In this document: positions 57,072 through 60,566 of the stretch, piece after piece
Numbering within the stretch: the first letter of the stretch is position 1
How the letters are laid out: every line of letters starts with the position of its first letter
Origin: a phage
Strand: one strand, 5' to 3'
Sequence record: PZ179880.1
DNA length: 64,000 nucleotides
Program-made: the position numbers and the translations under genes
The notes under the pieces: generated by a model
The model's database searches: none
What the model saw: the letters and a program-made list of their open reading frames with translations, nothing else
Told to the model about the DNA's origin: nothing

Positions 57072-58410
<1,339 letters not shown>

Positions 58411-58435
58411 TATATCATCCTCAGCAATTTATTTT

Positions 58436-58465
58436 ATAATACCATAACAAGCTGAGAAAGTAAAC
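58436..58465 (-). promoter_or_regulatory. early promoter for nuclease-like ORF and dam
   Basis: GTTTAC, 18 bp, TATTATAAAA. Confidence 0.45.
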
Positions 58466-58509
58466 AAATTTATGAAATTTGTGATAAATATTAATTTAAA
58501 GGAGGACAT

Positions 58510-58710
58510 ATGGCACAAAAATTAATGGCACTTGTTAATGCCATCAAAGGTAATAAGAAACGTATAGCTTTTACTATTTCTGCTATGGTAGGAATTTTAC
58601 TCTGGAACTTTATTTTATCACCAATTGCAATTGCGCATGGTGTTAATATTCCAGTAGTTACTCTTGATACATTCGTAGATCTAGCATTTGCTTTAGTTGG
58701 GTTAATTTAA
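58510..58710 (+). CDS. small two-helix membrane protein (66 aa)
   Basis: Plus-strand ORF in a gap with no minus-strand ORF; strong SD AAAGGAGGA 5 nt before ATG; hydrophobic. Confidence 0.4.
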   Translation: MAQKLMALVNAIKGNKKRIAFTISAMVGILLWNFILSPIAIAHGVNIPVVTLDTFVDLAFALVGLI

Positions 58711-59735
58711 ATCTTGGCATATTTAGATAACCGCATTTTAGCCATTAACCCCTGGGCAATATTATTTTTCATATATTCCATAATTTGTTCAGGGGTTGCA
58801 CCTTCCTTTCTAATCATATCATTAACATCTTTTGATTTCCAGGGAGATTTATCCCAAAACATAACCCTTTCTCCTGCATCAACTAATTTAGTCATTCGCT
58901 TGATAGTGTCAGGGTGACGAGGTTCATTATCTAAAACCCACACTCGTCTATCTTTAAATGGAACAACTTCTAGGTCTAATTGACCACCCGTAATAGCTAT
59001 ACCATTTTCAATAAAAAGCGAATCTATAGGTCCTTCTAGAACATATACATCACCATCTTTGACTCGTTCGACTCCATAGATTTTTGTTGCCTCAGGATAA
59101 GCTTTGATGGTGATATATTTTTGAGGAGCATCTTTCTTTAATGCACGTCCTTGAAAAGACTCAGCTTTTCCGTTAGCATTATAAATTGGAATAACAAGAC
59201 GAGGCTCAGGTGTTTCCTTTTTATATGTTCCTGGAGCTATACTATTAACTAATTTAGGCCATTCAGTTGTAAACCAAAGATATTTCCATTTATCCTTTGG
59301 AATACAACGAGCTTTTACATATTTTATAATTGGATGGTCTTCCGCCAATTTATCTAATCTGATGCATGACGGAAGAGATTTAATTATTTTCTTCTCAGGT
59401 TGTTTAGGAAGTTCTTTAGGTTTTTCTACTGGACGACTTTTACCTTTTTCTTTTCTTATTTCAAAGATATACTCACGATATAAATCAGGTTCAAACTCCT
59501 TTAAATATATTCCGATTGGTGCATGATAGTTACAGTTATAACAATGAATATTTCCTTCATTATTATCACCGTAATACCATCCACGGGCTTTATTTTGGTC
59601 GGTTTTTGAATCTCCACAAACAGGGCATCTAAACCTTAATTTAAAAGTTGAACTATTATTTACTTGTGTGAATTTAGGTAAATGAGCTAATGCACGATAT
59701 GCAAACTCATTATCAATCCAAGGTATTGATGACAT
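58707..59735 (-). CDS. 61: DNA primase gp61
   Basis: 342 aa; N-terminal zinc ribbon (CPVCGDS ... CYNCNYH), Toprim-like core. Confidence 0.9.
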   Translation of the reverse strand: MSSIPWIDNEFAYRALAHLPKFTQVNNSSTFKLRFRCPVCGDSKTDQNKARGWYYGDNNEGNIHCYNCNYHAPIGIYLKEFEPDLYREYIFEIRKEKGKSRPVEKPKELPKQPEKKIIKSLPSCIRLDKLAEDHPIIKYVKARCIPKDKWKYLWFTTEWPKLVNSIAPGTYKKETPEPRLVIPIYNANGKAESFQGRALKKDAPQKYITIKAYPEATKIYGVERVKDGDVYVLEGPIDSLFIENGIAITGGQLDLEVVPFKDRRVWVLDNEPRHPDTIKRMTKLVDAGERVMFWDKSPWKSKDVNDMIRKEGATPEQIMEYMKNNIAQGLMAKMRLSKYAKI

Positions 59736-60272: not shown

Positions 60273-60566
60273 TTACTCACCTACCACTTCAGCGATGATA
60301 TTTTTATTATTGAAGTTTTTATCGCAATACAGAACATAATTATACTGCATTACACCACCAGACTTAAGTTGTTTTTGCACTTCAGCTTTCATTTCAGGAC
60401 GATCACGCTCAACGATATTCATAATATCTGCTTCAATCTGAGTTTCAACCTCAGTCTGATCTGCAGTCATAGACCATTCGCACAAATCTTTATCATAACC
60501 TGCCATAGCAGGCTGAGCAGCACAAGAAGCTAAAGCAAAAATTGCAGCAAAAACAAATTTTTTCAT
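60273..60566 (-). CDS. sp: Spackle periplasmic protein (superinfection immunity / lysozyme inhibitor)
   Basis: 97 aa; cleavable signal peptide (ALASCAAQPAMA). Confidence 0.65.
   Translation of the reverse strand: MKKFVFAAIFALASCAAQPAMAGYDKDLCEWSMTADQTEVETQIEADIMNIVERDRPEMKAEVQKQLKSGGVMQYNYVLYCDKNFNNKNIIAEVVGE

Follow-up and report, generated by a model that had tools for sequence, protein, structure and literature searches.

The dam.1 locus

The window analysed here is a 64-kb stretch of phage DNA (64,000 nucleotides; PZ179880.1) and is a segment of a Tequatrovirus (T4-like) genome; within it, positions 57800-58800 have matches of 100% identity in Yersinia phage ZN18 and Escherichia phage a51. 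Between gene 56/dam and the primase gene, gene 61 (58707..59735, minus strand), the window contains a single plus-strand gene, an ORF of 66 codons plus a stop codon (58510..58710, ATG start, TAA stop; MAQKLMALVNAIKGNKKRIAFTISAMVGILLWNFILSPIAIAHGVNIPVVTLDTFVDLAFALVGLI). An earlier reading made without database searches (the sequence-only reading) had placed a 66-aa ORF at these coordinates among minus-strand neighbours, and we confirmed both the ORF and the orientation of its surroundings, since in near-identical phages every neighbouring gene with an annotation is a minus-strand gene. The ORF has the arrangement used as a feature of family membership: it is the sole opposite-strand gene, it lies downstream of the gene 56 region, and it meets gene 61 tail to tail. 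The stop codons of the two convergent genes overlap by 4 nt (58707..58710), and no plus-strand terminator is predicted between them downstream of the ORF. The same 4-nt overlap with the primase gene is present in ST0, VR25 (second copy), Bas37, L043, L044 and L045; the two genes do not overlap in L020 and L046.

The gap that contains the ORF holds only one minus-strand ORF, a 29-aa ORF with a TTG start codon (58429..58518), in agreement with the proposal that no minus-strand ORF of comparable quality is present. Describing the locus as the gap between dam and gene 61 is accurate only in part: the interval considered does start just past a 186-aa gene, but the space between dam and gene 61 also includes that minus-strand gene (57850..58410). 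Immediately upstream of the ORF start codon is a strong Shine-Dalgarno sequence, AAAGGAGGA (58498..58506, plus strand, read from the sequence; GGAGG core at 58501-58505). The spacer had been given as 5 nt; by direct count it is 3 nt (CAT), or 4 nt from the GGAGG core. A strong Shine-Dalgarno sequence precedes the ORF in every homologous locus compared, and the phage 107 record annotates a ribosome-binding site at this position. Further upstream, also read from the sequence, is GATAAATA (58483..58490, plus strand), which, as had been claimed, differs at one position from TATAAATA, the sequence of the T4 late (gp55) promoter; its last base is 19 nt before the ATG.

The sequence-only reading treated the ORF as a discovery. 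The gene is in fact already annotated in hundreds of records, has been named dam.1, and is a member of phrog_2024, a family of unknown function to which it has a full-length match (E=1.6e-31, residues 3-66 aligned to profile positions 2-65 of 65). The name dam.1 is used in T4T (HM137666.1, T4Tp032, ADJ39749.1) and, as a note, in RB33, where the 201-nt ORF is on the same strand and in the same position as the ORF described here, and likewise overlaps gene 61 by 4 nt; many GenBank records describe the product as a "hypothetical protein" or a "putative (trans)membrane protein". An intact copy is also found in T4 (NC_000866, 17738..17938, plus strand), and its product differs from that of this phage at only three residues. 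The ORF is not annotated in either of the classic T4 records, AF158101 and NC_000866, and the CRISPRi-ART and HIDEN-SEQ screens have T4 gene tables that lack dam.1; with the ORF missing from the reference T4 records, T4 dam.1 was never scored in these screens. A literature search found no paper that mentions dam.1 by name. The finding in itself is therefore a rediscovery of an annotated hypothetical gene.

The locus in this phage differs from that of T4 in the region between dam and the ORF. Here, the minus-strand 186-aa gene abuts dam, which encodes a GATC methylase. The product of the 186-aa gene resembles type II restriction endonucleases, with matches to phrog_8706, PADLOC REase_II (9.1e-5) and Pfam DpnII (0.0045), and one record names it "putative DpnII restriction endonuclease". 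A promoter scan placed an early-type sigma-70 promoter for this gene at 58436..58464 (minus strand; TTTACT, 17 nt, TATTAT with TG), and the JB75 record has an annotated promoter in the corresponding position. It is possible that the 186-aa gene and dam constitute a phage-borne GATC restriction-modification pair, with the former transcribed from its own early promoter. The predicted sigma-70 promoter is back-to-back with the putative late-promoter motif of dam.1, and is part of the context of dam.1 rather than of dam.1 itself. The 57800-58800 segment, in which the 186-aa gene lies, is covered to 80% or more in only 146 of 504 Tequatrovirus records. Relative to this phage, T4 (L004, 3116-3260) lacks 548 bp, corresponding to most of the restriction endonuclease-like gene together with its promoter, such that only a C-terminal remnant is left. 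The endpoints of the T4 deletion coincide with an 8-bp direct repeat, TTTGTGAT, at window positions 57930-57937 and 58478-58485.

Conservation of dam.1 and selection on its protein product

We used tblastn to determine the distribution of the dam.1 product, and found it in 693 phage records, always encoded beside the primase gene. At an identity of at least 80%, dam.1 is found in 503 records, the same number as for gp61 at that threshold; because the two counts are equal, we conclude that dam.1 is effectively universal in Tequatrovirus. Copies in Mosigvirus and Gaprivervirus are 50-55% identical and occupy the same slot, and homologues with about 20-30% identity occupy this slot in five more divergent T4-like lineages. 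The five distant members (P0108, P0109, P0111, P0112 and P0115; 22-27% identical in alignment A3) are each encoded by a single opposite-strand gene that is tail to tail with a gene for a ~340-aa primase, on T4-like contigs. An exhaustive profile (HMM) search of 1.84 billion representatives yielded matches to only 16 cluster representatives, indicating that the dam.1 family is small, and a metagenome scan with the single protein identified 3 loci.

Conservation of the reading frame in homologues had been named as a check on the gene. The frame is kept, and the pattern of substitution in it is that of purifying selection on the protein: in 17 distinct Tequatrovirus DNA versions, pN/pS in the ORF frame is 0.21, and the numbers of variable sites at the three codon positions are 11, 4 and 16. 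The other five frames of the segment all contain stop codons. Residues W32, N33, P38, G44 and P48 are nearly invariant (alignments A2 and A3), as is the presence of an acidic residue near position 53, which is D in this phage (D53) and D or E in nearly all members. Based on the record counts, the 50-55% identical relatives, the distant members in the same slot, the pN/pS value and the conserved residues, we conclude that dam.1 is a real protein-coding gene under purifying selection. It is one of few small accessory genes that both occur universally in Tequatrovirus and retain synteny in distant relatives.

One record has a disrupted dam.1 frame. In phage Shinka (L003, about 2211-2410), a 1-nt deletion, with AAGAAAC read as AAAAAC, leads to a frameshift after codon 16, and the Shinka record does not annotate the frameshifted ORF; the deletion may be a homopolymer sequencing error.

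A second type of dam.1-like gene, which we refer to as type B, is found in the Klebsiella T4-like phages Marfa and Potts1 and in Gaprivervirus VR25 and VR26. The type B paralogues have the same length and the same primase slot as dam.1, and share both the W-N...P...G...P...E motif and an upstream octamer, in this case AATAAATA; they differ in being only ~22% identical and in having another N-terminus (MGTLFYQIWKL). In VR25 and VR26, the type B gene is a second, divergent tandem copy, located between the first copy and the primase gene and preceded by its own Shine-Dalgarno sequence. Type B second copies are found at L006 2701..2901 and L013 1701..1901 and are broken in L007 and L015; the second copy is interrupted by an early stop codon in TH40 and another genome. 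The Klebsiella T4-like phages have type B only.

A putative late promoter upstream of dam.1

The octamer upstream of dam.1, GATAAATA, matches the late-promoter consensus TATAAATA (-13 to -6) at 7 of 8 positions, the difference being in the first base. From its position, transcription would start near 58496, leaving a ~14-nt leader. The ATAAATA core is roughly four-fold under-represented in the window, with 10 copies observed on both strands as compared to 38.2 +/- 6.7 expected under a first-order Markov model. Given this depletion, the presence of the octamer upstream of dam.1 is more than would be expected by chance. Half of the 10 copies precede a Shine-Dalgarno sequence and an ATG, namely those of genes 34, 36, soc, t and the dam.1 ORF; the exact consensus TATAAATA precedes genes 34, 36 and soc.

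One parallel to dam.1 in the window is the holin gene t (Pfam Phage_holin_T, 2e-117), which has the octamer AATAAATA 18 nt before its ATG. Each gene has a non-consensus octamer 18-19 nt before the start codon together with a strong Shine-Dalgarno sequence, and the product in each case is a membrane protein of N-in topology, a topology that for dam.1 is predicted from sequence and model. By contrast, the two proteins have no relationship in sequence or fold: T, which is required for lysis, has 218 aa, including a large domain in the periplasm, whereas the dam.1 product has 66 aa and the positional homologue in phage Bas37 (see below) is dispensable. The octamer of t in this phage (31937-31944, plus strand; gene from 31957) is AATAAATA, and that in T4 is the consensus TATAAATA. 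The gene 38 context upstream of t also differs between this phage and T4.

We compared the sequences upstream of dam.1 homologues in ten distinct T4-like contexts that are otherwise unrelated in sequence. All ten have [G/A/C]ATAAATA 12-22 nt before the ATG, and some of the intergenic spacers are ~34 nt, with room for only the octamer and the Shine-Dalgarno sequence. The octamer is absent upstream of the non-T4 homologues (0/3 contexts). In all ten T4-like contexts the first base is G, A or C, and the consensus T was never seen; the late promoters of T4-like phages have been reported to show little conservation of T at -13 (PMC1524935). Based on the retention of the octamer in ten contexts, the depletion of ATAAATA in the window, the parallel with t, the absence of the octamer from non-T4 loci and the published variability at -13, we consider it likely that a gp55-type late promoter lies upstream of dam.1. 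These data support the proposal of the sequence-only reading that dam.1 may be a late gene transcribed convergently with gene 61. The non-consensus first base may reflect selection for a weak promoter, and the consistent avoidance of T at -13 is a hint that the dose of a membrane protein is being controlled. We searched the literature on T4 transcription start-site mapping and ribosome profiling and found nothing relevant to the dam.1 ORF or its strand, and found no published transcript, 5'-end, ribosome-footprint or peptide evidence for the ORF.

Predicted topology and possible roles of the dam.1 product

Kyte-Doolittle analysis with a 19-residue window identified two peaks above 1.6 in the dam.1 product, of 2.02 at residues 23-41 and 1.86 at residues 47-65. 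An AlphaFold2 model built with the family alignment (pLDDT 82) has helices at residues 2-12, 16-42 (27 residues) and 52-65 (14 residues). Five K/R and no D/E residues are found in the N-terminal part of the protein; there are no K or R residues after residue 18, two Asp and no K/R after residue 42, and the C-terminus ends with ...LAFALVGLI. The hydropathy, the distribution of charge and the AlphaFold2 model all support the earlier suggestion of a small membrane protein. The accompanying suggestion of two hydrophobic helices holds insofar as two are predicted by hydropathy and AlphaFold2, but only the first would span the membrane fully. That predicted transmembrane helix corresponds to codons 19-42 (58564..58635, plus strand) and includes the family-invariant residues W32, N33 and P38. 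The second, at codons 52-65 (58663..58704, plus strand), is predicted from hydropathy, AlphaFold2 and the alignment to be a short helix of hydrophobic or amphipathic character at the C-terminus, starting with D53, the conserved acidic residue; distant members of the family have K, Q and E in their C-terminal segment, which in them does not resemble a membrane segment. We infer that the family consists of N-in, single-pass inner-membrane proteins with a short tail on the periplasmic side. Searches of Pfam, PADLOC and PDB sequences, and of viral structures with Foldseek, returned no functional homologue, only members of the family, and no Rfam family matched within 58200-58900.

Phage Bas37 has a gene, bas37_0144, that is a homologue of dam.1 by position and size rather than by sequence: it is 201 nt long, is on the plus strand, and overlaps the end of the primase gene by 4 nt. 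In the HIDEN-SEQ transposon study, this positional homologue had insertions at 20 of 24 TA sites and was classed as "Non-essential"; three host comparisons gave log2FC values of 0.33, 0.20 and -0.28 (q=1), indicating no conditional phenotype in them. The main text of that study does not mention bas37_0144. Judged by this positional homologue, dam.1 appears to be dispensable under laboratory conditions.

Taken as a whole, these observations favour, with a probability of about 75%, a real, conserved and already annotated gene, dam.1, that is probably expressed late and encodes a small membrane protein. We envisage that dam.1 would be transcribed late by gp55-RNA polymerase from the sub-consensus promoter [G/A/C]ATAAATA, giving an mRNA with a ~14-nt leader and a strong Shine-Dalgarno sequence; since no plus-strand terminator is predicted, this transcript should then continue antisense into gene 61. 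From the sequence and the model, the product would be an inner-membrane protein whose basic N-terminus stays in the cytoplasm; one transmembrane helix (~19-42) would be followed by a ~24-residue tail on the periplasmic side, the short helix of which would be embedded in the outer leaflet or rest on it. Residues W32, N33, P38, G44, P48 and D/E53, which are conserved across the family, would then form a face at the periplasmic end, through which the protein might act late in infection by self-association or by docking on another membrane protein.

We tentatively suggest that the dam.1 product is a low-copy, late accessory envelope factor connected with lysis, lysis inhibition or late protection. 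Similarly tentative is the broader notion of an overlooked late envelope factor that is common to enterobacterial T4-like phages and is kept at a low dose by a down-variant late promoter; such a factor could have been missed by classical genetics and by both T4 screens, with no gene in the reference annotation. Like the dam.1 product, T4 Imm, Ac and RI belong to the accessory set of the T-even phages and are small inner-membrane proteins. They differ from the dam.1 product in that we found no homology by Pfam or PHROG, and Imm is the product of an early gene and has two transmembrane segments, unlike the timing and topology predicted for dam.1. If a phenotype were found, dam.1 would add a component to the well-studied envelope and lysis biology of T4.

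We considered whether the ORF, its timing or its product might be explained in other ways. The first 13 codons of the ORF coincide with a terminator-like hairpin on the minus strand (58512..58547; 11 pairs followed by UUUUUG) that is stable on this strand only (dG -12.4 kcal/mol, z -3.8, as compared to -6.8, z -0.1, on the plus strand) and that could act as a terminator or provide a 3' end for gene 61 mRNA. This structure favours a reading of the segment as the 3' UTR or terminator region of the gene 61 transcript, with an incidental, unexpressed ORF. However, the hairpin, which is weaker in T4 (-8.9), is absent from Mosigvirus, Gaprivervirus, Klebsiella-type loci and L020, all of which conserve the protein. 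Being confined to Tequatrovirus, it is unable to explain conservation at the protein level, and we ruled it out as the main reason for conservation. Since the low pN/pS, the amino-acid conservation in the same slot down to about 20-30% identity and the strong Shine-Dalgarno sequence at every locus all argue for translation, we regard an unexpressed ORF as extremely improbable. A real gene might instead be expressed at early or middle times from an unrecognised plus-strand promoter, with NATAAATA being coincidental or serving another purpose; the octamer is never an exact match to the consensus, and there is a weak sigma-70-like match on the plus strand (58391-58418, 9 of 12 positions). That match lies within the segment of the 186-aa gene that is missing from T4 and RB33-type phages, whereas the octamer is kept at a spacing typical of late genes in every one of the ten contexts, including those with space for nothing besides it and the Shine-Dalgarno sequence, such that expression outside the late period seems unlikely. 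The main product of the gene could also be RNA, with a late antisense transcript into gene 61 helping to shut off primase mRNA and the peptide being secondary. The convergent genes with overlapping stop codons, the lack of a predicted plus-strand terminator and the conserved tail-to-tail layout are all consistent with this idea. Purifying selection on the amino-acid sequence is not, and neither are the lack of overlap between the genes in L020 and L046 and the existence of homologues outside T4-like phages that have no primase neighbour. We therefore view RNA as the main product as quite improbable; an added antisense role for the dam.1 transcript is possible, but is not needed.

The sequence-only reading had brought up superinfection exclusion and lysis timing as common roles of small membrane proteins in such slots, and none of our results shows either for dam.1. 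Two other functions have to be weighed for a protein of this kind. A role in superinfection exclusion or immunity, in which an Imm-like protein would block entry of DNA from a secondary phage, fits a predicted inner-membrane protein with a short conserved motif facing the periplasm, and fits the position of temperate-phage homologues at the prophage end past the tail genes, which is typical of accessory "moron" genes. Exclusion in T4 is achieved early, by Imm and Sp. With the predicted late promoter, expression would come too late for a classical early role in exclusion; moreover, Pfam searches detected no homology to Imm or Sp, and the Sp homologue of this phage is a separate ORF (60273..60566) at the spackle position of near-identical phages. 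We consider an exclusion function improbable. The UniProt entry for phage OE5505 labels the protein as a holin (UniRef name "Holin"), and a holin or pinholin would indeed be small, membrane-embedded and probably late. Some family members have weak similarity to holins, with three matching GTA_holin_3TM (E=0.03) and one distant member matching a holin PHROG (E=5e-4), but the dam.1 product itself has no significant match to a Pfam or PHROG holin. The same genome encodes a canonical T holin (Pfam E=2e-117), the C-terminus of the dam.1 product is hydrophobic rather than charged, and there is no adjoining endolysin gene, the neighbours being dam, the restriction endonuclease-like gene and the primase gene. 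We rejected the name "Holin" on the basis of the T holin, the uncharged C-terminus, the lack of linkage to an endolysin gene and the dispensability of the Bas37 positional homologue, in which insertions are tolerated, and consider a holin or pinholin function very improbable. A type I toxin of the Ldr or Hok type was also considered and rejected: the only indication was a match of one relative to Ldr_toxin at E=0.1, and the Rfam search of 58200-58900 was empty.

We also looked at the neighbourhoods of homologues outside the T4-like phages (the yegD prophage, L024 and L026), which gave no clear functional clue. The positions in temperate phages, at the end of the late/tail region, would fit an accessory role in the envelope or in immunity, but prove nothing. 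In the E. coli F8111-1SC3 prophage, which is located in yegD, the homologue (L038, 20442..20654) is the last gene before host yegD, and is present in 25 of 5426 genomes. The homologue at L024 6001..6210 follows the tail-tip and Endonuclease VII genes and precedes the integrase gene, and that at L026 129..308 is directly upstream of a gene for a 352-aa RelA_SpoT-domain protein.
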